40,722 bases of DNA, taken from positions 1-40,722 of the forward strand of contig JYFJ02003504.1 in assembly GCA_000934665.2 (NCBI GenBank), in the 5' to 3' direction. The DNA comes from Catajapyx aquilonaris (lineage: Eukaryota). Shown one piece after another: positions 1,424-38,604 of the stretch. The stretch's first letter is position 1, and each line of letters begins with the position of its first letter. The notes below the pieces were generated by a model that made no database searches, was not told where the DNA came from, and worked only from the letters and a program-made list of their open reading frames with translations. A program made the position numbers and the translations under genes.

Positions 1424-2852
1424 AAACTTCTTTCGCAAGCTACTTGGGTGAAATAATTAATGTTAGCATGATGTACTGTGTACGGGATTTGTAGGCAACT
1501 CCTCGCCTGTCATACTATATTCCCCGGTCAGTACTTCTGCCCTGCAGTCCCTGCAGGACTTCTCAATCCGAACACCCTACATAATATTGGCACTTTTATT
1601 ATTTTTTTGTGGTGCATTGTGGCAGGATTTATTGCTGTATATACACTACTGTATTGTAGGTCTCTACCCTACACGAAGCACTGCACCCGTTATATTACAA
1701 TGCACTATGTGTAGGCCTACTCCAGTTCTTGCCAAAGAAGGGAAAGGAGCCCCCGGAACCTGATGATCCTCTACCTGGAACCTCATATTAAACATGTGTA
1801 TTGAATGCTTCAAATATTCAGCATTAAAAACAGCAATATTAGTATTGTGTGTTGGTAAATTTTTAAATATTTGGAACCTGACCCATTTACTTACATTATA
1901 ATTTTGTTTCGTTTTACCCCTTTTCATTTTACACCGCATGTTGCTGGAACCAATCCCCGGCGTCAAACGAGGAGTATACCTGTCAGTACAATTATTTCAT
2001 TTCAATTTTGGCTCTTTCGGACATAATTTTTCTCATGTTTTCGCTCCGTCTGCCTCAGCCCCCTGCCACACCGACCCTAGCCTTATTGGTGACGGTAGGG
2101 AACTTCAAAGTCTCCGCCACCCCGGATTTGGCGCTGGCGGCGCTCCACAGGCATCTATGCGTGCATATATGCCTGTCGGCAAATATGAAATACTCATCAG
2201 TATTTAGCTGCATCAATTGTATACAATGAACGTGGACCATACATAACATGAGTGTACTGTAGGCTTGGTTGTGGTGCATAAATGAGGCATGCATTTGTTA
2301 GGAAATAGCAGAGCTTTTGCTCATCCTCAATTTCTATTTATTATTGCAATGGAAGCTGCCATTTTGGATCCTACGGGACCAACATAGACAGAGGTAAGTT
2401 TGCATTGATCTGGAAACTCAAACCGTATCCGTATAGCCGTATCCTGCGAGGATACTACCCTCATTGCCCGATGGTAACAGTGTTTCAGTGTGCATTACTG
2501 CCATTACAGGCATGCGGAAGACAGAAAATGTGCAGATTCGTTGCAATATTGGCGAATTGGCTATAACTGATTGATTTCTATTTACCCTTGAAGTCTGTTA
2601 TATCCGGAGTGTACTGAATGGGTCTTGCAATTTTTACTCCTCATACAAAATTAGACCATTAGTTGGCTTACTACAATTTGAATGGTTATTTTTTTACTGA
2701 GAGAGATTTTACAAATTGTCATCAATTTATTTATTAGTGTGTGAAAGAGAATGACATTATTTTGTCTATAATCTGTTATCTTTATCGCAACACCAACACA
2801 ACAAATTACAACGACCAAAAAATGTAGCAGTAAGAGGAGAGGTTGTACAGTA

Positions 2853-3004
2853 CTGGCCAATAATCGAGGCAACGACTAGCGACATTTTCCCGAAGCGGCA
2901 GAAGAAGGAATCGAAGATAAGCATGCTACAAGCCGGGCGAGCAAGATTCCTTCTTCTGCCGCTTCGGGAAAATGTCGCTAGTCGTTGCCTCGATTATTGG
3001 CCAG
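2853..3004. mobile_element. TA-flanked MITE with 60-bp perfect arms
   Basis: 2853-2912 is the reverse complement of 2945-3004, with a 32-bp loop and TA on both sides (Tc1/mariner-type TSD). Confidence 0.85.
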
Positions 3005-3013
3005 TATACTGTA

Positions 3014-3164
3014 CTATGGGGCTCAAACTGTTTTGGCAACTTTATCCTGGTTTTGAAGCAACCCTTCACACACCCACACACCCACACACAGCTCAACGTG
3101 GGGCCTGTGCGAAAGGTTGCCTCAAGACCAGGATAAAGCGGCCAAATCAATTTGAGCCCCATAG
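3014..3164. mobile_element. Second TA-flanked MITE, ~60-bp imperfect arms
   Basis: TA-CTATGGGGCTCAAA...TTTGAGCCCCATAG-TA. It is absent from the homologous 3' flank of IR-b. Confidence 0.8.
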
Positions 3165-3248
3165 TACAATATTACTATTTTATCAACATGGTGCCACATC
3201 TGATATGCATTCACAGGAGAAATGAAGACGGGTGTGTTGAGGACGAGA

Positions 3249-6200
3249 CTACGGCAAAAACGGGTAGATGGGGGACATTATAATGCCTTCGGACCTCTTC
3301 CGAGGAGCCAACAACTCTGAAAGTAATACGAGGATGGATAAACCCACTCCGAAAGACCACACGAGGAGAACAGGGGACATCTTGTAAAAGGTCAGGACAC
3401 GGTCATCAGAAGTTAAGCTGCCATCTTCGGAGGCCAAGAGTCGTGCTTGCAGGATGCGACGGAGGAACTTGCGGTGATTGGCGTACTCTTCTCTCTGGGA
3501 ATATATGCCGGATTCCATCATGTGAAGCGATGCTCTTATAATTCGTGGAGCGTCTATTTCATCCCGTGGCAAGGCTAGTCCTGTGTAGGTGGGAAAATAA
3601 TACTCTGGAATCAAATGCACCATCGGATTCCCGTTGTGGTCCACGAAGTTCACCGACTCTCGGCGATAATGGTAGTCTGTCACGACACAAGCAAAATCCT
3701 CGAGAATTACTCTCTCGAAACACTCCTCCCAACGGGACACTGTTTCACTCCTGTCGTACATTTCCTGCGCATATTTCAACCCACTCATCTTGATTCCTTT
3801 CCCGATGAGAATCCTCAGTGCCAGCAATATACCAATGGGAAATTTTGAGGCGTGCAATTCCCTGACTGTGTTGGGAAGGACCTCAGTCTCTGGGAAAGTG
3901 AGCAGAGCGACGATTCTGGACTTGTACAGACATCCAATCACCAATGAAAACAGCAACACGTACGAATAAAAGGCTCGAATAGATGGGTAAGGTGCGAGTG
4001 AAATTGCTTGCTCGATTATTTCGCGCATGATTACTCTCAACATGTTTAGGAGAGACGAAGCTCGTTCATTACCTGTCATAATAGCTGTTCGTATCCTTCC
4101 TTCGACATTTTCAAGCATGTACAATATTATGGACGAGAAAATGACTGTCAGAAACACACCCAACCAAGCTGTTGGGGTGTAAGGCTGGACAATTAGGTAC
4201 CACTTTATGTCTGGAAGAGCATGCCTTCTTATGAAAGAAAATCTAAGGAAAATTATAGGAAACGGTGCAGTGACTGCTCGGATTGACTGGGCAGTAAAAT
4301 ATAATACCATTGTTGAATCAGCCTGCCCATAGAAAACAGAGCCAGCGAAACCGCTGTAAGTACCATTGGGGTAAAAATTATCCAGGGTTAGGTCTGGGAC
4401 GTACACGCGTATTGTTACATTCCGACGTTTTTCTATGTCCAGCAGTGCATACTCTTCCAGAGAGAGGATGTACTTGTCGGGATCTTTGGCCCTCTCTCGA
4501 GCTCTGTTCATGTCAACTTCTTCATGATAAACGGCTCGGTAAATTTTCCCCCACCTATTCGGACTAGCAGGTATCGGAAAGAGATGGTCTCGTCCCAACA
4601 GTTTGTAGAGTGACTGTGGTATGGTTGGGTTGAGCTTGTCCTCTGGCTGGAAACAAAAGTAGCAGACGTTGTGCAGGATTAGTTTCCTCTTCCCTGGAGA
4701 GTATTGCGAGAGGAGCTTGAGGAAGATTCCTCTGGCCGGGTGTGCGAGGAGGATTCTCTCTGGGTCCAGCAGCCCATCGGAGGTGTGGATGAGGGTCGGG
4801 TCGAACTGGTTCCTGAACCTGAAGGTCGTGACTGCGTGCAAGACTAGGTCTGGGAAGTGTCGTGGGTGGGTGGAGAGGAGAAGGTTGAAGGAGCATTTCC
4901 CCCCGTTCCACGTCCGGGAGAAGAGGTCAGGGGGCATGGTCCTGAAGGAGTAGAGCTGCTCCTCCTTCCAGATGACCGGGTGGTCCTCGACGGACACCCT
5001 GAAGGTCTGTCTGTCCATCCGACCAGTGACCACCGGCCGGTACCTGCCCCCCTGGTGACGGGATATCAGACCCTGCATCGCCATCAGGCCAACCCTGTCC
5101 GAGTCGGTGTCCATGTTTAAGAAGCAGTCCGGGTAGTGGGTGTCCAGCAAGTGAAGGACCAGCTCCGTTAACAGGACGTCCTCATCTGGGTCCGGTGTCA
5201 GGGACACGTTCGAGCAGAGAGAATTCATCTGGAAAATGCGGAATTGATAGTGAGATGGTGTTCTGCAGAGATGTCATTATTTTGGTTTTTTTTAGTGTTT
5301 TTATCGAATTACGCCAGGCAGTCATCGTGTGACACGAAATTCGTCACTATTGACACTCAGAAAACGTGGACGTATCTCCACCCAGCGCAGCGGCCGGGGT
5401 TGTAAGTTCTTGAATGCTGAAATGGAGGTTGGCTACAGCAGGCAATGAGGAAACGACGCTCGGAAAACGTCTAATGCGAATTTTTGCGTGGTCGGGTGCC
5501 ACCAGTCATATACAGCCGAGGTGTGCCTGGAACTATGCTCTATACACGTTTCCAGGAGAGCCCTGGGAAAAGGAGTAGCGCTCCTAGTGGATTCAGGCAG
5601 TGAAAATAATCAAGTTTCTAAGTTTGCTTCATGAGAAATGTTGATGAGCACTCCCAAATCACTCCAGGGGCGGGCTACCCCGGGCCGGATCCCCCCATCG
5701 CCGAGCGAAAGTAACAATCAATTTTCGCCCCCAAACAATGAATTGGTCTCATCGCTCGGCGATGACATCGCTGCAATATCGCTAATCAAATCGCTCACAC
5801 GTAAACGCGGATTTAATCCTCGATCGAGTCGGACGTGACCTTCAAGTCGAGGTCATTCTGCTCTATTGCACACCTTCCTGTCACCCCCGTGAGCTTAGTT
5901 GTTCCTAGCCGCCGAAGTGTGGTTTCCGATTTGGCGCTGGTGTCGCTCCACGGTTTCTAAGGCGGTTCCTGGCGGCCGGCTTTGCGAACGTGCTTCGGAC
6001 CCAGCTGCAGGCCTTCAGTGGTTGGCAGTGGTCCTTTTTCATTACAGCTGGGTCAGGAGCAAATTTGCATTGTCGTCCGCCAGGAACCGCCTTAGAAACT
6101 GTGGAGCGACACCAGCTCCAATAACCACACCTCGGCGGCTGGGAGCAACTAAGCTCACGCAAAAGGGGAAGGAGTGTCCTGACCTGAGTATTTTAAGACC

Positions 6201-6442
6201 AGACCTGACGTATTTTATGCCGTAGTGTCGACCATCTACCATGTGCGGAAATACACCTTCCAATAATTCTCTATTTTAGGTAGTACAGGCCATTCCGTAA
6301 AAACTCGTTAACTGACCAATAATGGAGTAATGAGCATAAATAAATATGTGATAACGAGCAACCTTGGATTCGTATGACATCTGACCTGTTCTGCAAGGAG
6401 CATCTGACCCCAGACGAAGACGAGTAGACGGGTTAGCAGCAT
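3249..6442 (-). CDS. Divergent ionotropic receptor IR-a (iGluR-family chemoreceptor), 2 exons: 6442-6386, 5228-3249; ~678 aa
   Basis: Exon 1 encodes a signal peptide (MLLTRLLVFVWGQMLLAEQ) ending at CAG|GTCAGA, phase 0. The acceptor ttttccag precedes 5228. The 659-aa exon has an S1 lobe (NGTYSGFAGSVFYGQAD), the QPYT..W pre-M1 motif, M1, a pore EQ motif, M2 (SIRAFY...LYKSRIVALLTFP), S2 and a terminal TM (VLTFYKMSPVLLVWSFG...LSEL), which is the divergent IR architecture. Confidence 0.9.
5888..6159. mobile_element. Foldback/MITE in IR-a intron, ~120-bp imperfect arms
   Basis: CGTGAGCTTAGTTG...CCCAGCTG (5888-6008) versus its reverse complement at ~6043-6159. It is GC-rich and absent from the IR-b intron. 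Confidence 0.75.
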
Positions 6443-7643
6443 GGTGATTCGTGATTGCACGACCACTTCCGAAGGGCGACAAAGCTCCAATGACTGCGTC
6501 GTACGCAGAAGTGCGACGTGTCCCTCATTCCTAAGGACACGTTAGCAACACGTGGGGTGTGGGGACCTCGAAAGGTGACCTGCCCTTTAATGTTGCTGTT
6601 TTCCAAGCTGATGGCCATCGAGAGAGTGCTTTCTGGGCACCACTACATTACTTTATGGTGAATAATTAAATAATATTCGCTGCTAAATGAACCTTGCTTT
6701 TGGCGCAGTCCAAGTCCGTTAATGCATATTTCAACGCTTCGGTACTACTTAGACTTCATGACTTCTTAACCTGCCGCATACATTTCGTTGATGGAATCTG
6801 TGTCCGAAACACCAACACCTCTACATTAAAAATCCGTAATGTGCCTCACTACCATTTAATTATTTCGCCTTCTTAATTTCAGATCATCAATTCCAGTTGG
6901 CTATGACGTACTTGTACAAGATGTAAATACAACAGGGCGCATAAGGTTTATTTTTATTGGACAAGAGTGGCAATGGCCAATGGCAGGGTTAATTAAACAT
7001 CGTTTAATTCTCATGAAAATCATGAGATGTACTGATGCACCATATTCCTTTTAGTTCCAGCTGTACCCATAAAAGTATTTCTTATTCATTGTTGTGAGTT
7101 TTGAGTTATGATCCGAGCATTATTGTATAAGACAAACCCTTACGCCTATACTCTTCGGTTGAAATCACATGGTGCCAGGACAAACGAATATAGGCAGGGT
7201 ATGGAACAGTGGTCATGTTGTTTTTGGTCAGGAAGTCCCTGACAGGAGGAAGTCCCATGGAATGGAAGGTTTGAAATCAAGAAGGCGAAGCAATTAAATA
7301 GCAATGAGGCACATCACAGTAGGTAGGAAACGGCGTGTGTGATTGTGGCCATAGATTCCATCAACAGAGGGTACGGTCAGCTGTAAGGGAATAACCTATG
7401 AAGTACATGTAGTGCGGAGGAAGCTTTTGAAATGTGCGTTGCGCTCACATAGAGTACCGGTAGCTATTAAATCAGCCTAGAGCCTTTAGCCGCCAATATT
7501 ATTTAATTCGCCATAAGGTGTAATGGAGTGGTTCCCGGAAGGCACTATCTCGATGGCCATCTGCTTGGGCAACCACAACATCAAAGGGCTGGTCACCTCA
7601 TTGGAGCTTCGTCGCCCTAAGGAAGTGGTCGTCCATCATCACC

Positions 7644-10261
7644 ATGCTGCTCACCTGGCTACTCCTCTTCATCTGGGGGCAGATGCTCCTTGCAGATCAG
7701 GTCAGATTTCATACCAATCCAAGGTCAATTGCTATCACCTATTTATTCATGCTAATTACAAAATTAATGGGCAGTTAACCAGTTCTAGGGCATGGCATGT
7801 ATCTGTAGAGATCTGGAAAGTGTATTACGTCGCTCCCTTGCAAGATGTTCCACAGTACGGCGCAACATGCTTCAGATATTATCATTAGCATATGACTGGT
7901 CTTGTCGTCTCTTAAGGGATTTTATGGCTCAAGTTGTTGACAGCCTGGAGTAGTCTAAACAATGTGTCACACTAAAACCTCGATATAACACTCTCGCTTT
8001 TAACGCCCCATTTTTCCTGATCCTCACAGCAAGTGCGGCACTAAGCATCAGTTGCATATTTTAATAGTTTTTCGGAGGACCCACATATAGATTAATGTCA
8101 TGCATCAGGCCACTTTGAAATCTAATAAGGTAAGGTGTACATTGTCCGTTACTTTTTTCTCACTTGTTAATTTATTACTGAGGGAGTAGCATGCCTTCTA
8201 ACTGCAACTAAACTAAATCCGACCGCCCTTGCCCCGCTTTACCATTGATATATTGAGAAGAATTTTATCGTATCAATTCCGCCTATTCCAGATGAATTCT
8301 CTCCGTCCGAACGTGTCCCTGACACCTGACCCAGATGAGGACGTCCTGTTAACGGACCTGGTCCTTCACTTGCTGGACACACACTACCCGGACTGCTTCT
8401 TAAACATGGACACCGACTCGGACAGGGTTGGCCTGATGGCGGTGCAGGGTCTGATGTCCCGTGACCAGGGGGGCAGGTACCGGCCGGTGGTCACTGGTCG
8501 GATGGACAGCCAGGTCTTCAGGGTGTCCATCGAGGACCACCCGGTCATCTGGAAGGAGGAGCAGCTCTACTCCTTCAGGACCATGCCCCCTGACCTCTTC
8601 TCCCGGACGTGGAACGGGGGGAAATGCTCCTTCAACCTTCTCCACTCCACCCACCCACGACACTTCCCAGACCTAGTCTTGCACGCAGTCACGACCTTCA
8701 GGTTCAGGAACCAGTTCGACCCGACCCTCATCCACACCTCCGATGGGCTGCTGGACCCAGAGAGAATCCTCCTCGCACACCCGGCCAGAGGAATCTTCCT
8801 CAAGCTCCTCTCGCAATACTCTCCAGGGAAGAGGGAACTCGTCCTGCACAACGTCTGCTACTTTTGTTTCCAGCCAGAGGACAAGCTCAACCCAACCATA
8901 CCACAGTCACTCTACAAACTGTTGGGACGAGACCACCTCTTTCCGATACCTGCTAGTCCGAATAGGTGGGGGAAAATTTACCGAGCCGTTTATCATGAAG
9001 AAGTTGACATGAACAGAGCTCGAGAGAGGGCCAAAGATCCCGACAAGTACATCCTCTCTCTGGAAGAGTGTGCACTGCTGGACATAGAAAAACGTCGGAA
9101 TGTAACAATACGCGTGGTCGTCCCAGACCTTACCCTGGATGATTTTTACCCCAATGGTACCTACAGCGGTTTCGCTGGCCATGTTTTCTACGGGAAGTGT
9201 GATGCAGCAGTGGTATTTTATTATACTACTGAATCAATCCGAGCAGTCACTGCACCGTTTCCTCTTATTTACTTTCAATTTACTTTCATAAGAAAGCATG
9301 CTCAGCCAGACATAAAGTGGTACCTCATTGTCCAACCTTACACCCCAACGGCTTGGTTGGGTGTGTTTCTGACAATCATCTTCTCATCCATAATATTGTA
9401 CATGATTGAAAAAGGCGAAGGAAGAATGCGAACAGCTATTATGACAGGTAATGAACGAGCTTCGTCTCTCCTAAACATGTTAGGAGTAATCATGCGTGAA
9501 ATAATTGAGCAAGCAATTTCACTTGCACCTTACCCATCTATTCGAGCGTTTTATTCGTACGTGTTGTTGTTTTCATTGGTGATTGGATGTCTGTACAAGT
9601 CCAGAATCGTCTCTCTGCTCACTTTCCCAGAGACTGAGGTCCTTCCCAACACAATCAGGGAATTGCACGCCTCGAAATTTATCATGGGTATATTGCTAGC
9701 AATGAGGATTGTCATCGGGAAAGGAATCAAGATGAGTGGGTTGAAATATTTGCAGGAAATATACGACCGAAGTAAATCCGTGTCCAGCTGGGGCGAGTGT
9801 TTCGAGAGAGCAATTCGCGAAGATTTTGGCTGTCTCGTGACAGACTACCATTATCGCCGCGAATCGGTGAACTTTGTGGACCACAACGGGAACCCGATGG
9901 TGCATTTGATGCCAGAATATTATTTTCCCACGTACACAGGACCAGCCCGTCCACGGGATGCAATAGACGTACCAAGAATTACAAGAGCATCGCTTCACAT
10001 GCTGGAATATATTCGCAGAGAGAAAAGCACGGCAATCACCGCAAATTTTTGCGTCATATCCTGCGAGCCCGACACTTGGCCTCCGAAGATGGCAGCTTAA
10101 CTTCCGATGACCGTGTCCTGACCTTTTACAAGGTGTCCCCTGTTCTCCTCGTGTGGTCTTTCGGACTAGGTTTATCCAGCCTCGTTTTCCTTTCGGAGTT
10201 GTTGGTTCCTCGGAAGACGTCGAAAAACATTAATGTCCCCATCTACCCGTATTTGCCTTAG
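7644..10261 (+). pseudogene. Divergent ionotropic receptor IR-b, frameshifted (exons 7644-7700, 8292-10261)
   Basis: Exon 1 is accATG, MLLTWLLLFIWGQMLLADQ|GTCAGA, and the acceptor ctattccag precedes 8292. It is a close paralog of IR-a. Alignment shows a 7-bp deletion (ATCCGGC) at ~10006/10007. The shifted frame stops at 10100, and the missing terminal TM lies in another frame ending at TAG 10261. Confidence 0.85.
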
Positions 10262-12156
10262 TCTCTTCCGCCCAACACGAAAGTATTTACGTCTCCTTCA
10301 GGCAGTTTGTCAATGTAATATGCTTGATGTTGCACCATCTTGATGAAATGATATTGTACAAAATAATGCAAGTAGTTAGAGTCGTTGATTTTTTGTGGTA
10401 TTGGTGTTTCGATAGAGACACAGATGCCTTTAGATAACTCACATAATAATATTATGTTAGTCAAAAAATGTTATAGTGTATTTTCAAATGCAATTGATTC
10501 AATATTAAGATTTTAATAACATTTTATGAACATGTCGGAAGAACATTTCCCGAAGCACAGAGACAATTCAATTCGTTGCAGAAACCTGAAGAGTAATAAT
10601 TAGGCTTCTTTTCTTATTCTACCCTTGGCTGTAAAGTTTGTCACTAGAACTTCCATTATTTTCATGTAGAGAAAATAGTATAATAAATGTATCTGTGGCT
10701 CTGTGCTCATTGAAGCTGTACAATCTATTTAGAATACAACCGTTAAACAAAACGAGGGAAACCCTGTAATCATTCTGATTTATCCAGATTACTTCATCCG
10801 TTGCAGCACTAAAAAAAATTATTACGAAACGCATAAGATGCAGTCATCTAATATAAATTCCTCAAGTACAAATTGTAACATTGGAGATAATACGTATAAG
10901 TGCATCGCCAACTACTACTACTGGATAATGAGTAATACACTATGTATTGAAGGGCATTCGCTAGCTGTACTGGCATGCAATTTGAGCATTGCTTTTCCAG
11001 CCTAATAATATATTCACCTCTCCTCTACATTAGCATATGAAAATTTGACAAAATTTTAAATAACAGGGAAAAAAGAAAAGGTAAACTGAAAAATCATATG
11101 TAATTAGCATTAAATTTAATCTGGATTTTACCGTTGCGCTTAATCGATATTAGACCCATTTCTTTTGATACATTTTGCAATCAATTCTTAGAAATATCTT
11201 TCATAATAGTAATAACCCCTCAAAATACTCTCCTGCCAATTAGAAAATCAAGAGTGTAATTAGGGATTTACTTGCCCAAATTCATAATTACTCCGTCACC
11301 CAGAAGAAATGGAGTGATGGGGTTATAGCAAGATGTGATAAAAGGTTCCCATTATGATTATCTGGACTTTGGTATGGATAATTATGAATGGTAACAATTT
11401 AGCTAGGAGAATACCAAAGTTGAAGTAAATTTGACAGAATCTTCCTCAGAGCCTTGCGTAATAGATCAATTTTTTGCCTTTTGACCCCCGCATCTCAAAA
11501 GCTATTGACATCTATAGGGCTCTTCAGGAGAGCTGTTTTCTTTCTAGCAGATAGATAACCTGGAAAAAAACACAATTTGAACATGAACTTCAGACAGTAA
11601 TTGTTCCCTTATGATTCGTGTATGACGCTATAATTATGACCATGTCTGTTTCTCCTAAACTATGAGCCAATCAACAGATTTTATTGTCATTTTCGTGTTC
11701 AGTACCTCGAAATATTAGTCAAGGCTTTGAAATGAAAATGAAAATGGCGCTATTTTCATTTCAAGCCCCTTTTCAGTGTTGCCCAGTGTATTTAGACGAA
11801 TTTACGACAAAACCATTCTGCAACAAATTCTTGGTTAAATAAACCAACATTAATTTTGATCGTGTTGATGATATAATTTACATAACTTGACAAATATGAA
11901 TTTTAGAATAATGAACACTCGCAGCCGTCAAGCCAACATCGCTACTGCCGCGAAACCCGCAATTACTTGTGCAATCAGATACGAGGACAACAGAGATGAC
12001 ATTGACATTCAGTGAGTTACAATTACGAGATGAATAATCAAGTGTTTCTCCAAGAAACGACGCAGGCTGTTACATCGACGTGGAAATATGCCAAAATGCG
12101 TAGAAATATGTGTAAGTACAACAGGTCAGGACAGTCTAGTAACTGGCATACGAAAG

Positions 12157-14894
12157 ATGTCGTTCTCCTGCATAGCCTTCATCTGTGCTGCGCTAATGAG
12201 CCTGTCCACTAATGAGGTAAGCATATTCGTGAAGTTCACGTGAGGCATATCAGTTGTGTCTCGGTATGATGTATTATCATGTAATTTGAAATTGTCCTGA
12301 ACGTATTCGAAAAAATGTTTTACTAGATAAAACCACATGATTTCTAGATTGTAACACGTAGAGAGGAATTGTAATCTTGATTTTGCTACAATCAGAGAAA
12401 AAATATATTGTATACAAGAGTATGTAGCGACATTACAAGTGAGGACTAGTTTGTGCAACGGGGTGTAAACATTACAAGCCTCGTGTTCAAATCCATATGT
12501 GCAGGGTATTTCATAATTTAACCACAATAATGCGCGGAAATTTATTGCACCAACTTTTCTGTTTCTATAGGATTTTACAGCAATTTTTTTCCAAGTCTAT
12601 TTTCCCGCTTTTAAAAATATTAATTTAATTACGTGGAGTAATATTTTCATCTGTAATGACCATGCGCTAACTTTCAAGTTTTCCTTTGCAAGGTTAAGCT
12701 GCACGAAGTATTTACGTAACATTTGCTATATCAATTGCAATTAGAGCGGTTCGATAGTTTGTTGGGGCCAGTGTGGGAGTACGTGAACAGGTGCAAACAT
12801 TAATTATGTATTATCTTGTCAGTACACGACATTACTAGAAACGTTGTCGCAAATAGAGTTGGTCCGTATATCTCAAGCAGCGCAAACAAAGTCAGTCTAG
12901 ATATAATGTGCAATCCGCCTAAATTTCTGCAGGTGAATCCTCTCTCTCCGAACGTGTCCCTGACACCTGACCCAGATGAGGACGTCCTCTTAACGGAGCT
13001 GGTCCTTCACTTGCTGGACACCCACTACCCGGACTGCTTCTTAAACATGGACACCGACTCGGACAGGGTTGGCCTGATGGCGGTGCAGGGTCTGATGTCC
13101 CGTCACCAGGGGGGCAGGTACCGGCCGGTGGTCACTGGTCGGATGGACAGCCAGGCCTTCAGGGTGTCCATCGAGGACCACCCGGTCATCTGGAAGGAGG
13201 AGCAGCTCTACTCCTTCAGGACCATGCCCCCTGACCTCTTCTCCCGGACGTGGAACGGGGGGAAATGCTCCTTCAACCTTCTCCTCTCCACCCACCCACG
13301 ACACTTCCCAGACCTAGTCTTGCACGCAGTCACGACCTTCAGGTTCAGGAACCAGTTCGACCCGACCCTCATCCACACCTCCGATGGGCTGCTGGACCCA
13401 GAGAGAATCCTCCTCGCACACCCGGCCAGAGGAATCTTCCTCAAGCTCCTCTCGCAATACTCTCCAGGGAAGAGGGAACTCGTCCTGCACAACGTCTGCT
13501 ACTTTTGTTTCCAGCCAGAGGACAAGCTCAACCCAACCATACCACAGTCACTCTACAAACTGTTGGGACGAGACCACCTCTTTCCGATACCTGCTAGCGA
13601 GAATAGATGGGGCATAAAATACCGAGCGGTTCATTACGAGGAAGTTGACATGAATAGTGCTCGAGAGAGGGCAAAAGATCCGGACAATGTCCTGTCAGCT
13701 GTAGAGTCTGGAATGTTGGAAGTAGAAAGACGCATTAATGTTACATTTGAAGTTTATGTCCCAACTTTCTCTCTGGATGACTTCTACTCAAATGGAAGTT
13801 ACACGGGAATTACGGGAGCTATTGCTTACGGAAAGGCAGACATTGCGATGATTAACTTTTACACATTTGTGTCCATTAAAGCTACAGTCCTTCCGTCTCC
13901 CGTATTTTACCTTCACGTGTCTTTTTTTAGAAGGCATCCAAGGCCGGACATAAAGTGGTACCTTATAGCACAACCATACACGGCTATGTCATGGCTATCG
14001 GCCTTAACAACCGTCATTATTTCATCCGTTACACTGCACCTATTAGAGAAGTGTGAAAAGAAGCTAGGTAATCCGAGCATGCATCTTGTTTCGTCTTTTG
14101 TAAATAAGTTGCGACTAATAATGCGAGAGCTTATCGAGCAAGCAGATTCAATACCTCCTTACCCATCCCTACGAGCTTTTTATTCATACGTACTAGTTTT
14201 CACTCTAGTCTTCGGATGTTTGTACAAAGCCAAAATATTCGCCCTGCTGACATTCCCTGAAACGGAAATTCTGCCCAACACAACTCTGGAATTGTACCAC
14301 TCTAAGTTTACATGGGGCACAACACTTGCTCTTTACATTCTACTTGGAGCTGGGATAAAGAGAAGCCAGGTGGAATATTTGCAGGAAATGCATAAGATGA
14401 CTCAGCCAGTGAATGACTATCGCGATTGCTTCGAAAAAGCGATTGAAGAGGACTTCGCTTGCATTTTGAGCGATTATCTTTACGAGAGAGAATCAGTCAA
14501 ATTCGTGGACCACAAAGGTGAGACGAAGGTGTATTGGATTCCGAACGATTTGAACTCGATTTTCATTTACACTGCTCCTGCGTTCCCACGAGATGCAATA
14601 AATATTCCTGCTTCTCTGACTGGAATACTTCGCATGACTGAAGCGAATTTATTCAAGCAAAGGGAGGATTCTGTCAACCATCTCCAATTTTTGCGTTATT
14701 ACATGCGAGCCAGAAAGTCGGCGGAATATGACGGAACAGCACTTGAAGATGACCGGGTATTGACTCTGTACAAAGTCAGGCCTATTTTTTACGTGTGGTC
14801 ATTTTGCATTGTCATGTCCATCTTGGTATTTTTGTTCGAGTTTGTTGCTAGAAAGAGAACTACAAATAATGTATATCCAGGATACTTGCCGTAA
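12157..14894 (+). CDS. Divergent ionotropic receptor IR-c, 2 exons: 12157-12216, 12933-14894; ~673 aa
   Basis: Exon 1 is MSFSCIAFICAALMSLSTNE|GTAAGC (hydrophobic signal, phase 0). The acceptor tttctgcag before 12933 sits at the same position as in IR-a/b. The ORF is intact, with S1 (NGSYTGITGAIAYGKADIA), QPYT..W, M1, pore EQ, M2 (SLRAFY...LYKAKIFALLTFP), S2 and a terminal TM. Confidence 0.9.
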
Positions 14895-25469: not shown

Positions 25470-25529
25470 CTAAAATGTAATTACTTCTAACGTACTGCTA
25501 TCTTTACTACTTTACTTTAATTCATTACT

Positions 25530-25847
25530 AACTTTAGTAGTACTTTAGTAGTACTTTAGTCATACTTTAGTAGCACTATAGTAGTAGTACTTTAGTAGCA
25601 CTATAGTAGTAGTACTTTAGTAGCACTACAGTAGTAGTACTTTAGTAGCAGTACTATAGTAGTAGTACTTTAGTAGCAGTACTTTAGTAGTACTAGTACT
25701 ATACTAGTACTTTAGTAGCAGTACTATAGTAGTAGTACTTTAGTAGCAGTACTATAGTAGTAGTACTTTAGTAGCAGTACTATAGTAGTAGTACTTTAGT
25801 AGCAGTACTATAGTAGTAGTACTTTAGTAGCAGTACTATAGTAGTAN
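25530..25847. repeat. Minisatellite (~28-bp unit TAGTAGCAGTACTATAGTAGTAGTACTT) ending at an N
   Basis: Tandem TAG/TAC-rich units. The N at 25847 suggests an unresolved or collapsed array. Confidence 0.9.
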
Positions 25848-25999
25848 TACGTAACGCAAGTGTTGCCTACGTGCACAAGAGTATTTTATTATAACAATGC
25901 CAGGATGCATGCACTGCATGCTTAATCCATTTCATGTAATGTGTGGGTATTGTTACAATAAAATACGCTAGTACATGTCTGCAAAACCTGCGTTACGTA
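25848..25999. mobile_element. MITE-like hairpin with ~54-bp imperfect arms in the last intron of the giant gene
   Basis: TACGTAACGCA...GTATTTTATTATAACAAT versus ATTGTTACAATAAAATAC...TGCGTTACGTA. Confidence 0.65.
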
Positions 26000-26140
26000 C
26001 GGACAATATGGCCGCCTTTCGTGGAATTGCCCTGCTACTAATGTACGGTACTACTAAAGTACTGCTACTATTACTACTACTTAAAAGTAGGTCACCACAT
26101 ACACTTCTGAAGGTGAGCTAGACACAAAATGAAGACTCAC

Positions 26141-29009: not shown

Positions 29010-29882
29010 CTACAGGAAGAAGGGGAGGAAAAGAGAAAAAGCGCCAGGTTAGATCAAAGGATGGCCAAAATACTTAGCTTTTTTATGTTTTGTTTGTTTT
29101 TTTGTAATGTTTTTTTAAATACATAAATGGCAAACCGAATTCAGCTCAGGCAGGAAATAATTTCTGGCGGAGAAAAAAAAATTAAACGCGAAATTATACT
29201 TTCGTGTTTTCCTTCCTAACTTTTTTTTTTTCTCCTGGCGCCAGCACACACACGAGTTTTTTCTTTTCTTTCAAAAACCAAAATTTAAAGGGCAGCATCT
29301 CGCCTTTTTTTTGGAACATAAATTACAAGGAAATGTATTCAAAAATGTATCAAAGTCAAGAGTTCTACTTGTCGATGAACAATTTGTCGTTACACTCGCT
29401 CCAAGAAGTGCATGCATGGTGGTGTTTTTCACTTACTAAAATTACGTTCCTTCATCATCATCTTTTAAATATGATAACGTTTAAACAAACGTGTCCACCT
29501 AAGCAAACAATACAAAAGAATAAAGCAGAAATCAAAAAAGTGGCCACCAATATGAAACGCAACAGGAACTGAAATAAAAATGAACAAGTACGTGGTGCAA
29601 CCGGACACAAGTGATCACTCATTTCCATCAAACTAAAATAAAAAGGAGTGGAACAAAAAAATTATACACATATCAAATACTGAACCAAGAAAACGTGGCG
29701 TCAGGGGGAATGGTGAACGAAACCAAGTAAATATATTTTTGTGAGGGAAGGGGGGAGGGTTCGCAAATGTTGTCGTCCAGCAGAAACAAACCACAGGCCC
29801 AAAAAACCCAAAAATCAAAAACAGGCAGAACCAAAAGAGGTGAGTATACACAGGAGACGAGTCGTAGCTACTGGGCCTCTAC

Positions 29883-32800
29883 CTGCTGAAGTACTACAAG
29901 TTAGTCCCGGCTCGGGATGTCGGTGATGGGTGGTTGTGGTGGAGGTTGTGGACAGAGAGGTGCCAACAGGGTCTCCGGAAGATGAAGAAGAAGAAGAAGG
30001 GTGGTAATGGTGGTGGTAATGGTGGGCTGTGGGACGGTCCTTGGGTTCATCAGTCTCCGAGTCTCGAGTCAGTGTGTCAGTCTTGGGTGCAACTCGTACC
30101 ACCTTCTTTCTTCGAACAACTCTCTTCACAGTCCCGCCTTCGTGGATTGTCTCTTCCTCTTCTTCCTCTTCCTCCTCTTCCGTCTCCTGCTTTTGAGCCA
30201 TTCGTCTAAGGTACGCCTCGAGTTGAGCCTCAGGGTCAGACCCTGCGTCCGTCTCGACCACAAACCTCTTCTGGACCACGCGGGTCACATGAACATTCCC
30301 ATGCTCATCCGTCTCTTCCTGCTCCTGGATGAGTTCTCCAGGTCTGAACCTTTCGATGTAGTCCTCCACTTGTTTCTGGGCGTCCGGACCTGTGAAGGTC
30401 AGTCTCTGAATCTCAGGAGGCATTGCCACTGTGCGGTGTATCTCCTGGGCATACTCCGGGTCGTCGTCGCGAGAGTCTCTCCTGTAATATGTTCCTTCAG
30501 CACCGCGAAGAAGACCTTCGACCACTTTGTCAGGGTCAAGGTGCATCATGTGACCTTCGGATCCGGCGGCGGCTGCGGCGGCTGCAGCTGCTTGATCCAG
30601 AGCATCAGTGCTGGATACCATAGTGTTGGAACCTCCACTGGTGAAACTGGAGGACATGACAGAGTCGGTCTCACACTGGTAGGTAGCGTGTGTGGCCGTG
30701 GAGGAACTAGGCTCTAATGAATCGGTGCTTCCGGTCATTAGGAGGTCACGAGGCAACCCCATGGCCTTATCACCACTGTCGTCCTTCCCACTAGAGCTGA
30801 GGTCTCCTTCGCGCCCACTGGAGCTGCTTTGATCCTGAGCAGCAGCCATGTCTTTGGGAGAATCCGAATCAGCGTCTGGCTCTGAAGGTGGCGGTCTGGA
30901 GGCGCCTTCGACCTCTTCGACCGCCTCGCCACGTCTGTCCTCCTCGATCGAGTCCACACTACGGGTCAGGCCTCCAGAGTAGGCGTCTCCGGACCTGCAT
31001 GGACCGGCGGTGGTTGAGGCACTAGCGCCCAGCTCCAGGGAATCGGTGGAGGTGGTCATCACTCTGGAGGGAAGGTCGAGCGAGTCTGTGGACGTGGTCA
31101 TCATCTTCGTGTGCATCTCAATCGAGTCGGCCGAGGTGGTCATGGCTGACCTCTTGGCCGCTCCTTCCATCTCTATTGAATCTAACGAGGCTGTCATCGG
31201 ATCATCCTTGGTCTTTCCTGGGTCCAAAGAGTCTATGCTTTTGCCCATCGTGTCTTCCTCTCTGGTTCCGGCCTGGTATTCGATTGAGTCTGCCGAGGTG
31301 GTCATCACGTCTCCGGATTTTGTTTTCATCTCCAGCGAGTCTGTACTGGATTGCATCTGAGGGGCAGGAGGTTTGTCGCCCGATGATTCTACAAACGAAT
31401 CGTCGTCGTATGACCTGCCTTTCAGTGACTCGATGTCAAAGTGGGTGATGGTCGAACTTTGACCCGAGCCGCCGCTCATGGTTCGCGACGCAGGCAAGTG
31501 CGGTATGGTACGGAAGCCCTCAGGAGGAAGAATCTGATGAGGCAAGCTCGAGTCCAGATCCAGATCAGGCAAGTGCTCCTCTTCTAGGGAATCAGCATCA
31601 CCATCATCCCTCCCAATGGACTCGGTCTTATCCACGAGACTGCTGGCTGTGTCCCCTCCTAAGCTTTCCATCACTTCTCCAAGTGGAAGACCCAGAGGTC
31701 CGCTGCTGGTCGTCATGCTGCCGTCCCTGTCAAAATTCTCCACATTGGTCTGCGCCTGCCTGATTATCTCGTCAATCTCGAACATTCTCTTCTCGTAATC
31801 GTCTCCTTCTGATTCGTTATCAGTGTCAGTCGCTTGACCCGCTTCGGACAGAGTCTCTCTTCCCTCAGACTCGGACAGCTGGCTCTCATGTCCCTCCTCG
31901 ATTTCGGACAAGATGGCCTCTTCCTCCTGCGCTTTCTGCTCTATGGTCTCAGCCTCTATGCAGGCGCTTTCCAGTCGCTCGAACTCGTTCAGCGACGACA
32001 AGGACACATCGTCGCCCTGCCCACTACGACTTGGACGACGCCCGTTTAGCGAGTCCTGAGAACCAGAGCTTTGCCTTCGAACCGTGTCCATATCGAACTC
32101 CTGCTCAAGTTTCTCAAACTCCTGGAGGGAGCCCATGGATATGTCATCATGTTCACCGCTCCTTGTGAAAAACTTGCGTCCGGCCAAGACATCATACTCT
32201 GGAGTGCTGCTCAGAGACTCGGCTTTGCAGCGATCCAGATCTCTCCTTTCCAGGTCATCAGACTCGTCTTCCTGAGTCTCCTCAATGTCTTCTAGAGGCT
32301 GCCTGTAAACCTGGTCTGGCTCCGCGTCATAGCCCATGTCATACCCAGGGTCACCCACAGGCCTGTCAAATTGCATCTCCATCCATCGCTTGCTGTCTTG
32401 CACTTCGTACTCGTAATCCTCTGGATAACCGGACCGTTCAAATGACATTTCGTATGCATAAGCCGCATCGTCCCTTTCGGTTGGGACAGCATCGTCGTGC
32501 TCTAACATCTCTGTTTCTTCCTCTGAAGGAAAGAACTTGACGTCTGTCGGCTGTGCGGAGAGTGGAGCAGGAGAAAGAGGCTCGTCCGATTCCGTCAGTG
32601 GACGGCCGTCTTTGACCGACGTGTCTGTATCTTCCTCCAGGACAACCACGTACTCATCCGCCGCCATGTCAGTCAACTCCGATTTCTCGATCATCTCAAA
32701 CGATTCAGTTGACAATGACTTGAGCTGCATCTGACCTTCGCCAGATCCGTCTGAACCTCCTGGAAGATGCTGCTCCTCGGTCAGCATTGTCATTCCCATC

Positions 32801-35800
32801 CGTTCCAACACTTCTGCCTGCAGCTCAATTTCAGGTTCTTCCATAATAGCGTCGCCCATGTCCTCTTCCTCCAGAACATACTCTCGGCCCTGGTCAGTTT
32901 CAGTCTCCGACGACTTTTCTGACGCGTGGCTCGATCCGGAAGCTGGAGTCTGAGGAGTCGACTTACTGCTGGCACATTCCGGAAAGTCCTCCTCTCTATC
33001 CAGATCTGGGTACCTGAAGTCCTTGTGCACTGTCGGGCTGTGTTGGGTGATGGTAATGTCAGGAACATTCACATCAGTCAAGGGGGCCAGAGTGAGCCAG
33101 GTTTTCTCGTGAGGATACTTTCCTCTAGTTTCCAGCTCATGTTTCTCCTCAGGTTCTTCCTTGAGGGGGTCCAATGGCCGCTTCTCGTGACTTATTTCAA
33201 TCCGTTCGTCGTGATACACAGCGGCCTCAGACTCGGCCAGTTCATGCGACTGCCACTCGCGACTGTCACCGTGGGTCGCATATTCGGCTGCCCTACTACA
33301 GGCCCCTGAGTACTCAGACTCCAGCTCACTCACGCTCGCCTGCGCTTCTGATGAGAATTCGGGAGTGTCGTCCTTTATCTCATAGTCTTCGACAGGTTCT
33401 GGAGTGCTGGGACGCTCCAGAGGCTCTTCCTGATGCACCTCACTGGTCATCTCCATAATCTCTGTGATCTCAAGCTCAGGGTGGTCGTCGGAAAAGGCAA
33501 CGTCAGCCGACACTGGTCTTAGGTCGGTGTCGGACACGATGGAAGCAGGTCGACTGTCCTCTCTCTGCTCTGACTCTGGCTGTTCCATATCTGCCGCTGC
33601 TTCCTTCTCCTTCTTTCGTCCTCTAAGCAGCGCCTGGTCCGCTTCCGTTTCATACGACTCCTCCTCAGCTTCGTCCACATCTTTCATCTCCATGTCCAGA
33701 CCTTCCTTGGTTGTCAGGCTTTGCTCGGGCTCCTTGTATTTGTCGCTTTCTGGAGCGTCTTCAGCGGACGTGACGACTGACTCTTCGGGTCTTGGTCTGC
33801 TCATGGTGGTGGTGGTGACTGGGCCTTCATGCCTGGCAACGGACTCGGTCATCACCAGCTCGCGAACAAAGGAGTAAGTTCCGTCGCTGACACTCTCGTT
33901 CCGCCTGTGTCGACGTCGCTCGACGCGTTCGCCAGCTGGTGCCGTCCTTTCCCCTGTCGGAGCGTCGGTTTCTCCGCCTTGTGCAGGACCGCTGGCGTCG
34001 GCAGGACGGTCCATGTCGTCGTACTCGGGAACATAGTCCACCTCCGTCGGTCCGTTGCTGTGAGCGTACACTTCTTGATTGTCGTCGTCGTCGTCGTCGT
34101 CGTCCTCCCCTCCTTCCGTGGTGTCGGCGTATGATTCGGAAGTGACCTGGGTGCAGACGCTGGGGCCGCCGTCGCCCTCACCGCTGGGGATAGAGGACGT
34201 GGTAATGGTGACTGATTGCATGGCCAGGTTGGGTGGGGAGGGTGGGTAAGTAGTTGTGCTGACCTCGCTGGTGGTTGTGGTGCTGGTGGTGGCGGCTGAC
34301 GTCGTCGACGCCTCTGAGGTGGGAAGGAGGGCTGTGGAAGCGGTGGGCGACGCTGGGAGGGACGGCTCCTGGCGACCCTCAGCAGTGCTCAGCTGCTCCG
34401 ATGTGGCCGAGCTGGTCATGGCGCTCAGCTGCTCCACCAGCTCAGAGTCGGTCAGCGACGCCTGGTGGCTGGCCGCCTGTATCACCGTCCGAAGCGTCGA
34501 TTCGGACAGGCTGGACAAACTGCTGTGGCCTCCGTCGTCAACGCTTGAACTCAGCGTCACAGACATGTCGTCAATTGACTCCCCCATCACCGGAGCTTCG
34601 GGCTGGGACATTGGCGATTCCGAATGCGGACTCTCGGTGTGGATGGGTTTCGGCTCAGGATGGAAGGTCATCTCGATTGACCTCTTCATTTTGGGTGCAG
34701 GCGACTCCTCAAATGTTGCAGGGTGGAAGTCGCCGGAGGTTTTGTGGGCCGAGGTGTCTGCAGTCGGCTCGGTCGTCATTCGCGGTTGGAAGCCTTCGGA
34801 TATCATTTCGAAAGAGGTGGGCATATCCTCCTCCCTGGGCGTCAGAGCCCGTATGACGTGAGGAGGTATTTCCCTCTCGTACGGCTCCACGAACCTGTCT
34901 TCCGCCGCCTCGTCGTCGTCCATGACAGGAGTCTCAACCTCCCTCTCCATGTCTCTCTCCAGCTCAAGAGCGGACGGAACGAGGGTCTCTGAGGTTTCGC
35001 TGGAAGCTTCTACACTAGCTAGATGCCCGGAACTCTCAGAGCTCTCGATCGACTTCATGGACTCCCTTGAGCTGAGGGAGCTGACAGCAGTGTGGTACTC
35101 CTGAGACGTGGTGGTGGTGGCGACGGAGTGGTCTTGAGACGTGAGAGCCGACTCGTAGTCGGAAGAGCCAGCTGTCCCTGAACCGGCGATTAAGGCTTCG
35201 ACGTCTGATGAACATGGTCTGCTCATGGTGCGACCGCTCTCTGAGGTCTGCTCGAACGAGTGGTACCGACTTTCGCTGGAGCTGGACCAACCTTCGAAGT
35301 CGGCTCCAGAGCGTCGGTCCGCCTTAAGAGCGATGCCTCTCTCGTCTCTAGATCCCGAACTAGTGGAAGACTCAGCGTCAGATTTTCTGTCCGCTTTTGG
35401 GGATTTGTGGCTGCGAATCACAACGACCGTGTCTTTAGCCTCCAACCTCTCCTCTGCAGTGGAGTACTCTGTCGAAGATCTCTTGTGCTCTTCGTCAGAA
35501 GAGGTCCGTGTCAACCTGTCGTCTTTCTTCTCAACGACTTCGGTGGAAAATCTGTCAGTCTTTTCTTCTGACTTTTCCACTTTCTGGCTGACTGAATGAA
35601 CCTTCTCTCGGGTCTCTGAACCATTGTCGCGGAAGGTTGTTGTTTTTCTCGAGCTCTCCTCCGATTTTTTGGATTCGGAAGCAGTAGCTTCCTTGTGCTC
35701 TTCCTCCTTCGCATGTGACTCTACGGTCCCTTCTGGACTTTCTTCAACAGAGGCCTCCTGCACCCTAACAGAAATCTTCTCCCTGTGATCACGCTTTTCT

Positions 35801-37946: not shown

Positions 37947-38604
37947 CTAGAATAGGATGACAACAGACGAGCCGTTAGTATCTACCTAGCCACTACAAAT
38001 AGCAAAAAAGCTAAAGTGCAGCAGAACAAGAAACTGGTTTTTTGTTGGTGGTGTTTTAGTTTTAAAGGGGGGCTAGGCGACAGACAAAAATAATTAGAGA
38101 TGAGTTCGCAAGAAGAATCGAAACTCATGAGCGAAGTTAACAGCACTGTCTTTACTTGTTAAAGTACAAGCTGTTAGAGAGAAAAAGAAACGAGGGGGCG
38201 TCGTCACCTTTTTACGTCCTACTGTGAAAGCTGACATTCAAAGGATATCATGAATGTTAGTGAATCCCTTGTGCAGCTGTGAGGAAAGCTCGTCAATCAT
38301 TAGTGCACATGTCTACAGACTATGTTAGGGCATGGTTCCACACGTGTCTTGAAACCTGTATGCATCGGACCGCCACAGTCCCGTTCGAACGGTCGCAAAC
38401 AAACTCTACTTGCAAAAGTGTACAGAAGCGAGGATTCATAACATAAGCACGGCTACAAGCGGTTCCCCCCTCTCCCCGAATGAAACCCGAAAAATTATTA
38501 AACATCAAAATTTACAAAATTTTATTGAAGCAGCTAACTCTCGCCAGTAACGGATAAATTGACAAGAGAGAGAGACAGAACAAGGCCAGCAGGGAGTTAA
38601 GTAC

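Follow-up and report, generated by a model that had tools for sequence, protein, structure and literature searches.

The window, i.e. the whole stretch of 40,722 nucleotides that was analysed (contig JYFJ02003504.1 of Catajapyx aquilonaris), contains three genes, IR-a, IR-b and IR-c, which are paralogues in a large lineage-specific expansion of divergent ionotropic receptors (IRs), ion channels of the smell and taste type. They share one gene structure, with a single predicted intron after the signal peptide and the remainder in one open reading frame (ORF). The following features are relevant here:

6386..6442, minus strand: IR-a exon 1, predicted from sequence, a 19-codon signal peptide with a phase-0 donor
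3249..5228, minus strand: IR-a exon 2, intact, 659 codons, with half of an amino-terminal domain (half-ATD), S1, M1-M3, S2 and M4
4564..5212, minus strand: converted ATD block of IR-a
7644..7700, plus strand: predicted IR-b exon 1, a 19-codon signal peptide; this region shares 82% identity with exon 1 of IR-a
8292..10261, plus strand: IR-b exon 2, with a frame-shifting 7-bp deletion near 10008
8308..8956, plus strand: converted ATD block of IR-b; identity with IR-a extends to about 9069
12157..12216, plus strand: predicted IR-c exon 1, a 20-codon signal peptide; upstream DNA unlike IR-a/b
12933..14894, plus strand: IR-c exon 2, intact, 653 codons
12949..13597, plus strand: converted ATD block of IR-c, codons 6-222, modelled as one iGluR ATD lobe
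13598..13687, plus strand: shoulder of IR-c at the start of S1, codons 223-252
13688..14894, plus strand: S1-TM-S2-M4 half of IR-c, synonymously saturated against IR-a/b

The frameshift in IR-b leads to a stop at 10100 with loss of M4, and this gene is probably a pseudogene or null allele; the deletion does not appear in the original prediction. Each block also holds a 120-aa ORF in an alternative frame, which we take as a by-product of GC-rich codons.

The channel architecture S1-M1-pore-M3-S2-M4 is present, apart from the M4 of IR-b. Lig_chan was found in 43 of 46 members, with the window proteins scoring below the curated cut-off. The IR profile matches iGluR chains (E 5e-27), and an IR AF2 model with a pLDDT of 86 matches GluD2 in Foldseek (E 2e-19); in the alignment of the profile with GluD1, the M3 gating motif is degenerate relative to iGluRs and co-receptors. 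The short N-terminus (~200 aa) is, according to the model, structurally one ATD lobe. The top four VIA matches of the block model are iGluR ATDs (Z 10.4-10.7, rmsd 3.6-6.1, 163-188 aligned), and Foldseek with the ATD model gave no match at E<=0.001. On the sequence level the ATD had no Pfam match, and its profile gave no hits against PDB sequences. It retrieves 34 proteins, of which the full-length ones are distant and the named ones are springtail IRs. The animal's own genome has 1079 candidate IR places, with 151 matches from 150 scored; homologues of IR-c and of the 46-sequence alignment were not found among 8000 scored candidates each.

A block of about 650 bp is common to the three otherwise divergent genes. 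Its coordinates had been proposed from the letters alone together with about six differences between IR-b and IR-c, and the exact count is indeed six (IR-b positions 8348, 8357, 8381, 8463, 8515 and 8644). In 60-nt windows the identity of IR-b and IR-c amounts to 0.97-1.00 in the block, falls to about 0.78 at 13598 and to 0.45-0.75 beyond; the longest identical runs are 312 bp (b-c) and 305 bp (a-c). With a changepoint permutation p of 0.002, the minimum attainable with 500 permutations, chance is excluded for this pattern. The block ends at the ATD/S1 junction and has divergent flanks on both sides. As predicted, exon 1 and the intron of IR-c are unlike those of IR-a and IR-b, with no BLASTN match at word size 7 and E<=0.1. 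IR-a and IR-c have the same ATD and a remainder that is 52% identical. In the shoulder of IR-c the identity with IR-a/b is 76% compared to 58-62% beyond, likely a remnant of an older, longer conversion tract. The drop in GC across the boundary (40/60 at 8461, 22/60 at 9241) could be reproduced exactly, and GC3 of IR-c is 0.80 in the block versus 0.43 downstream.

The peptide differences quoted for a grouping of IR-b with IR-c inside the block (AVQGLMS/AMQGLIS and others) are real, and the grouping stands as similarity. As descent it is less well founded: polarised with the paralogue C3817 as outgroup, most sites that set IR-a apart were altered in that gene alone (7 of 9 such private changes are non-synonymous), and shared-derived support for b+c is confined to codon 183 and possibly codon 75, with a bootstrap of 61.

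Synonymous sites carry the main argument. Inside the block dS is 0.02-0.04 among the three genes (b-c 0.019), whereas pS outside it reaches 0.69-0.77 and the ligand-binding/pore half of IR-c is saturated against IR-a/b, in line with the strong divergence claimed for it. Saturation within the block, which would have pointed to purifying selection, was not found, and purifying selection alone is ruled out by dS as the cause of the block identity. Synonymous constraint or a low mutation rate is likewise ruled out, as four-fold identity is 0.97 within the trio, compared to 0.35 between groups (1500 sampled pairs), with saturation at 0.26. In AU tests with 11 genes, the ATD and LBD trees were each rejected on the data of the other half (p 4e-81 and 2e-5). 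The neighbours on C3232 provide a second clear swap, being sisters in the ATD tree and not in the LBD tree. Because synonymous sites are homogenised, the ends are sharp and the trees conflict, the block pattern is regional non-allelic gene conversion. With the raised GC3 and the coincidence of the block with a structural domain, the proposed domain-restricted concerted evolution is supported.

The assembly is built from short reads, and the four raw-data runs come from one sample, perhaps the assembly's own source. A single block pasted into three genes by assembly or polishing had therefore to be considered, particularly as 23 of 84 plus-strand IR matches lie on contigs broken inside the ATD and no listed contig piece crosses the full block. 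Contigs from the raw data, however, carry the block at 3-4x depth. Those assembled per run collapse 13118-13454 at a depth of 130 versus 44 in unique flanks (X1) and of 85 versus 21-24 (X2), and in all four runs an exact IR-c contig leads out of that gene's intron and enters the block. Since collapse presupposes near-identity and the copies retain private SNPs, an artefact could at most have lifted 97% to 99% or mis-paired 5' ends with LBDs, and we regard it as extremely improbable; the consensus artefact named beforehand as a refutation was not found. The breaks inside the ATD also imply that IR counts and rates of 'pseudogenes' or fragments are biased in such genomes.

To survey the family, 128 of 140 full-length IR ORFs, a sample picked by similarity from a much larger family, were arranged in 28 independent paralogue groups represented by one pair each. 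At four-fold sites the ATD was the more homogenised part in 23 of the 28 groups (17 significant, none reversed; sign test p=0.0009), and at third positions 20 were significant at p<0.01, again with no reversal. In the 15 mosaic groups the homogenised bins peak at codons 65-155 (13-14/15), compared to 0-1/15 for S1/S2 bins and 1-2/15 for TM bins. An 8-copy subfamily exhibits 97-100% identity in the ATD, 80-90% in S1 and 91-95% in TM. ATD-biased conversion is thus family-wide and recurs in many gene groups. A 'constant' N-terminal module kept for its function, as originally suggested, is not supported, and none extends across the family: amino-acid identity between groups is about 31% in the ATD, with four-fold sites near saturation, and every paralogue group has its own ATD. 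With 27% for LBD/TM, the N-terminus is here slightly more conserved on average, not the least conserved part of IRs as had been assumed. Positive diversification of the ligand lobes found no support either (a-b dN/dS about 1.0 in S1 and 0.38 in S2).

GC3 follows the same partition. In grouped genes (n=79) it is 0.64 in the ATD and 0.51 in the rest, compared to 0.56 and 0.52 in those lacking a close partner (n=49; p=3e-5). A polarised W>S/S>W test tended to a GC* of 0.67 versus 0.52, a difference that was not significant (p 0.07 and 0.55). The raised GC3 may reflect GC-biased conversion.

Our preferred explanation, to which we assign a probability of about 0.62, is that conversion is tolerated within the half-ATD but kept out of the ligand lobes, so that ATDs converge group by group. 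IR-c separated from the a/b ancestor long ago, and the copies still trade half-ATD DNA by non-allelic conversion, which would lift GC3 in the block. Tracts end with the homology, bounded by the fast-diverging intron and, at the opposite end, by the ligand-binding S1 lobe. Overwriting of the ATD may be tolerated owing to an assembly role common to neighbours, as in solved IRs the half-ATD of the tuning receptor lies against the co-receptor ATD; tracts entering S1/S2 would erase ligand specificity and be purged, or would find too little homology left. Selection against gene conversion is a known theoretical model, and it may act here in the ligand lobes. The ATD, as the longest ligand-independent stretch, would then become the main conversion island, and each local group would acquire its own converging ATD instead of one family-wide constant region. 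The TM/pore part, also ligand-independent, stays free of conversion in most groups, and likewise between IR-c and IR-a/b, which makes 'everything but the LBD' too simple. It also counts against this explanation that the most identical block is carried by IR-b, the probable pseudogene.

The position of the tracts is compatible with a DNA-level hot spot, too. Conversion would initiate in a break-prone or chromatin-marked core of the ATD-coding region and reinforce itself by identity and GC, with no selection needed. Tracts of unrelated groups are centred on the same codons 65-155 and fade outward, not filling the whole ATD (e.g. C3930, C4100); throughout the family the ATD has a lower CpG o/e than the part downstream (0.56-0.64 versus 0.72), and ATD GC3 is slightly raised even in 33 of the 49 genes without a close partner. 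We nevertheless consider this possibility a minor one, given that several groups have their 3' tract end at the domain junction (codons 196-222) and TM islands of homogenisation occur as well. A simple promoter-polar gradient is ruled out for IR-a/b, where exon 1 (82%) and upstream DNA (69%) are less identical than the LBD (88-91%).

Selection could instead favour a common ATD through which neighbouring tuning receptors retain a compatible interface for a co-receptor, perhaps one of several IR25a paralogues, or for trafficking. The block coincides with the half-ATD, the ATD core retains 33-41% aa identity even between distant IRs, and two tandem IR25a-like genes lie on C551. By analogy, the idea fits the available part of a cryo-EM preprint on other IRs (10.64898/2026.09.30.755715), in which the ATD of tuning IRs is an R2-only lobe touching the co-receptor ATD, a contact with a subfamily code. 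Such adaptive homogenisation appears unlikely to us, because the low between-group identity means that no single sequence is required, dN/dS within the block is 0.5-0.8 with mostly non-synonymous changes private to IR-a, and in an unconverted pair dN/dS of the ATD (0.23) is no lower than that of S1 (0.17) and S2 (0.12); moreover, the frameshifted IR-b is homogenised to an equal degree. A one-time chimera, in which IR-c gained its ATD when domains were shuffled between the a/b lineage and an old gene, would agree with the very sharp boundary at 13598. It is very improbable in view of the differences of IR-c on both sides, which need two exchange points and hence conversion, of the nested ages (block 98%, shoulder 76%, C3817 95%, C402 77%), of an a-b block younger than the a-b flanks, and of at least 15 independent groups that repeat the pattern. 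A more speculative and rather doubtful extension takes the half-ATD as an exchangeable assembly 'address', by which conversion would match IR groups to a co-receptor paralogue and re-address old ligand-binding halves; if true, a constant/variable logic would govern many hundreds of receptors in one family.

The process as such is known. A preference of conversion for the IR half-ATD throughout the family did not surface in the literature searched, and it falls on the domain that recent structures put at the co-receptor interface. No description of ATD-restricted IR conversion was found in the IR and chemoreceptor conversion literature, with most subscription texts and supplements outside the search. 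IR-a and IR-c represent natural ATD/LBD chimeras for probing the role of the ATD, and whole-gene IR trees blend distinct histories.

According to the available text, divergent ('tuning') IRs (PMC2924276, PMC6938034, PMC6175461) share with those described here the architecture, the one-lobe short N-terminus, near-intronless genes, pseudogenes and an IR25a co-receptor; the word 'conversion' occurs 0 times in the main text of these papers. Assembly with IR25a/IR8a and expression in sensory neurons are further marks of divergent IRs. In the available part of the cockroach IR paper most N-termini were trimmed from the alignments, the domain that is homogenised and relatively conserved here. In Drosophila, conversion was reported for some IR orthologue groups, where it altered the trees of two and possibly of another three (PMC4122928); unlike here, it was judged negligible for the family, and the available text states no domain restriction.

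The conversion of the IR block belongs to the same class as that of protocadherins and TLR1/6. The accessible account of clustered protocadherin variable exons in fugu (PMC1852091) describes a similarly sharp, domain-limited synonymous homogenisation among tandem paralogues. The converted part has elevated GC3, the effect is group-specific instead of family-wide, and the recognition domains are spared. There, membrane-proximal ectodomains in the 3' part are concerned, in contrast to an ion channel's half-ATD at the N-terminus here; the IR family is also much larger, with conversion in many groups that are dispersed. For TLR1/TLR6 and avian TLR2A/B, the available part of PMC3125219 reports few paralogues, conversion at both ends and positive selection, unlike in the IRs. 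As in the IRs, the receptors form heteromers with a common partner, and conversion curbs divergence outside the ligand-binding region while the latter diverges.

At the start of the window lie three genes resembling ionotropic receptors (IRs), IR-a on the minus strand and head to head with IR-b, with IR-c in tandem. Each comprises a predicted signal-peptide exon, a phase-0 intron and a single long second exon, placed from the sequence as follows:

6442-6386, minus strand, IR-a exon 1 (signal peptide, predicted)
5228-3249, minus strand, IR-a exon 2 (predicted)
7644-7700, plus strand, IR-b exon 1 (signal peptide, predicted)
8292-10261, plus strand, IR-b exon 2 (predicted)
12157-12216, plus strand, IR-c exon 1 (signal peptide, predicted)
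12933-14894, plus strand, IR-c exon 2 (predicted)

The reading frames of IR-a and IR-c are intact. In the assembled IR-b a 7-bp deletion near 10008 shifts the frame ahead of M4, which is lost; of the read-derived contigs listed for four DNA runs, all from one sample, none contradicts this deletion. Lig_chan matches of the three proteins in Pfam are weak only. A profile of 46 paralogues matched iGluR chains at E 5e-27, the structural matches of the AF2 model (pLDDT 86) are full-length iGluRs, and in the ESM Atlas the neighbouring clusters are Lig_chan/IR ones from arthropods. Those distant relatives of the N-domain that carry a name are IRs of springtails. The animal itself is an arthropod possessing IR25a and probably belongs to an early-branching hexapod lineage. 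Two IR25a-like genes occur in tandem on another contig (G000:C551:23300-34400, L178-L179), the second being more diverged than the first; the first contains two similar S2 exon-like segments (29988-29830 and 29662-29528), possibly alternative exons. On the contig G000:C662 (L098, L100-L102) kainate-like, glutamate-binding S1 exons form a tandem array of five or more.

The window also contains palindromic MITE-like elements (679-847, 2845-3014, 3003-3176, 5888-6159), repeats of very high run-contig depth (bins 3100-3500, 5506-5906 and 11120-11520, one within the IR-a intron) and a simple-repeat tract at 25513-26089 with an inverted copy nearby. An acidic, low-complexity open frame of 2719 codons (29815-37974, minus strand, GC3 0.52-0.70) matched no Pfam family, and 2000 aa of it gave no Atlas match; it resembles a very large exon such as those in genes of the cytoskeletal/ankyrin or MAP type.

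The near-identity of IR-b and IR-c described in the original prediction was recovered, with 6 differences between 8309-8956 and 12950-13597. Identity falls in a sharp step at 13598, GC drops from 40/60 to 22/60 across the boundary, and the upstream DNA of IR-c is without similarity to IR-a or IR-b. In the block (codons 3-222, Nei-Gojobori) dS amounts to 0.019 for b-c, 0.039 for a-c and 0.033 for a-b, so that the synonymous saturation named as evidence against conversion is not seen there. Outside, both comparisons with IR-c show saturation (pS 0.67-0.77) and a-b reaches 0.09-0.26, which makes the block younger than the a/b duplication. Codons 223-252 form a shoulder (76% identity vs 58-62% further on), and block identity to further paralogues is graded (C3817 95%, C402 77%), which points to tracts that arose at several times; a single chimera event is very improbable. 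The proposed association of IR-b with IR-c inside the block holds as similarity, but as a true grouping it is weak, with only 1-2 sites uniting both. Polarised with C3817 as outgroup, the a-specific sites are mostly private to IR-a (7/9 GC>AT, 7/9 non-synonymous). Truncated, decayed block copies with small deletions on the contigs C6276 (L005) and C8487 (L010) share the same inserted sequence just past the S1 start.

The concern that the identity is an assembly artefact was addressed with assembled contigs, not reads, of the four DNA runs, whose one sample is perhaps the source of the assembly. Positions 13118-13454 are collapsed in the run contigs, with a depth of 130 vs 44 in unique flanks (run X1) and 85 vs 21-24 (run X2). 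In 4/4 runs an exact contig connects the intron of IR-c itself with the block, and a further contig covers the unique 3' half of IR-c. Among the contig pieces listed none spans the block, and the pairing of 5' end and LBD is therefore unphased. The depth is that of a multi-copy block; three or four near-identical copies are real, and an artefact can hardly be entertained.

In the structure model an alpha/beta domain extends over residues 14-216 and S1 begins with the strand 228-233; the b-c identity changepoint is codon 222. Folded alone (pLDDT 87), the domain gave iGluR amino-terminal domains (ATDs) as its top four VIA matches among 48,161 chains searched, including 3qel_B (Z 10.7, rmsd 3.6, 163 aligned, chain residues 108-393), which suggests that the block encodes roughly one lobe of an iGluR ATD. 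Earlier literature, in the part available, described the IR N-termini of ~200 aa as being without ATD homology (PMC2924276), whereas the accessible text of a cryo-EM preprint reports the ATD of a tuning IR as an R2 lobe only, contacting the co-receptor ATD (10.64898/2026.09.30.755715). By analogy, such a contact may be inferred for IR-a and IR-c.

A TM-region search of the genome yielded 1079 candidate places, which are not gene counts, and 150 were scored. Stretches around the matches of this and further searches contained 140 ORFs with a length of 540 codons or more, 12 of which were dropped and 128 kept as full-length IRs, a non-random sample chosen by similarity. Genes were joined into a group if any 60 consecutive codons, irrespective of position, reached a third-position identity of 80% or more; this gave 28 groups (79 genes), each represented by one scored pair. 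ATD identity at third positions exceeded that of the rest at p<0.01 in 20/28 groups, the reverse in 0/28; at four-fold sites the ATD was higher in 23/28, significantly in 17, with 0 reversed. Homogenised bins of the 15 mosaic groups peak at codons 65-155 (13-14/15), with 0-1 in S1/S2 and 1-2 in TM bins. The partitioned trees suggested earlier (11 genes) reject each other for ATD and LBD/TM (AU p 4e-81, 2e-5). Grouped genes have a GC3 of 0.64 in the ATD against 0.51 in the rest; the other 49 have 0.56 against 0.52. An intron-containing subfamily of 8 loci shows 97-100% identity in the ATD, 80-90% in S1 and 91-95% in TM. For 23/84 plus-strand matches of the TM-region search the contig begins within the ATD, at codons 93-226, and for none does it begin in codons 231-300; on the minus strand 0/66 matches have a break in the last 230 codons at the 3' end (Fisher p 4e-7). 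This is the pattern that an assembler failing at near-identical ATDs would leave. Since genes broken in this way are absent from the 128, the pair test is conservative.

Homogenisation has its main island in the ATD, but some TM islands occur as well. The pair C5321:7258 and C6788:5396 shows 97% third-position identity in the ATD, about 90% in S1/S2 and just 50% in TM, the TM segment having apparently been taken from a third gene. In the family alignment CpG o/e is 0.56-0.64 in ATD-coding DNA vs 0.72 downstream, although ATD GC is higher; this may reflect methylation.

These data show that the DNA coding for the ATD undergoes recurrent regional conversion, which stops close to the domain junction and is accompanied by raised GC3; that conversion occurs there we regard as very probable. 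For its confinement we favour, at a probability of roughly 0.6, that conversion is tolerated in the assembly domain and halted by the intron and by ligand lobes that have diverged and are probably under selection. Overwriting of the ATD would be tolerated because it serves assembly, and a tract would run out at the intron on one side and at the diverged lobes on the other. A conversion hot spot at the DNA level in the ATD core is an unlikely alternative. Still somewhat more doubtful is adaptive matching of the ATD to a co-receptor, akin to the constant N-terminal module of the original prediction. Between groups the ATDs are only 31% identical in protein and their four-fold identity is near saturation (0.35 vs 0.26 expected), so no family-wide constant region exists. 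In an unconverted pair dN/dS of the ATD (0.23) is not below that of S1/S2 (0.17, 0.12), and IR-b is the most homogenised copy despite its frameshift. The expectation of a least conserved N-terminus was likewise not borne out (here N-domain core 33-41%, M3 46%, ligand lobes about 20-31%), and diversification of the ligand-binding halves by positive selection on the lobes finds no support in these data.

In Drosophila, conversion was recorded in some IR groups and judged negligible (PMC4122928). The portions searched of the literature, including passages of PMC6938034, PMC6175461, PMC2924276 and PMC13388675, contained no ATD-restricted IR conversion. Conversion of the IR ATD is real and well supported, a known process that is unusually systematic here. 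As far as the consulted sections describe them, protocadherin clusters (PMC1852091) and TLR1-family genes (PMC3125219) undergo regional conversion that works like that of the IR ATD.
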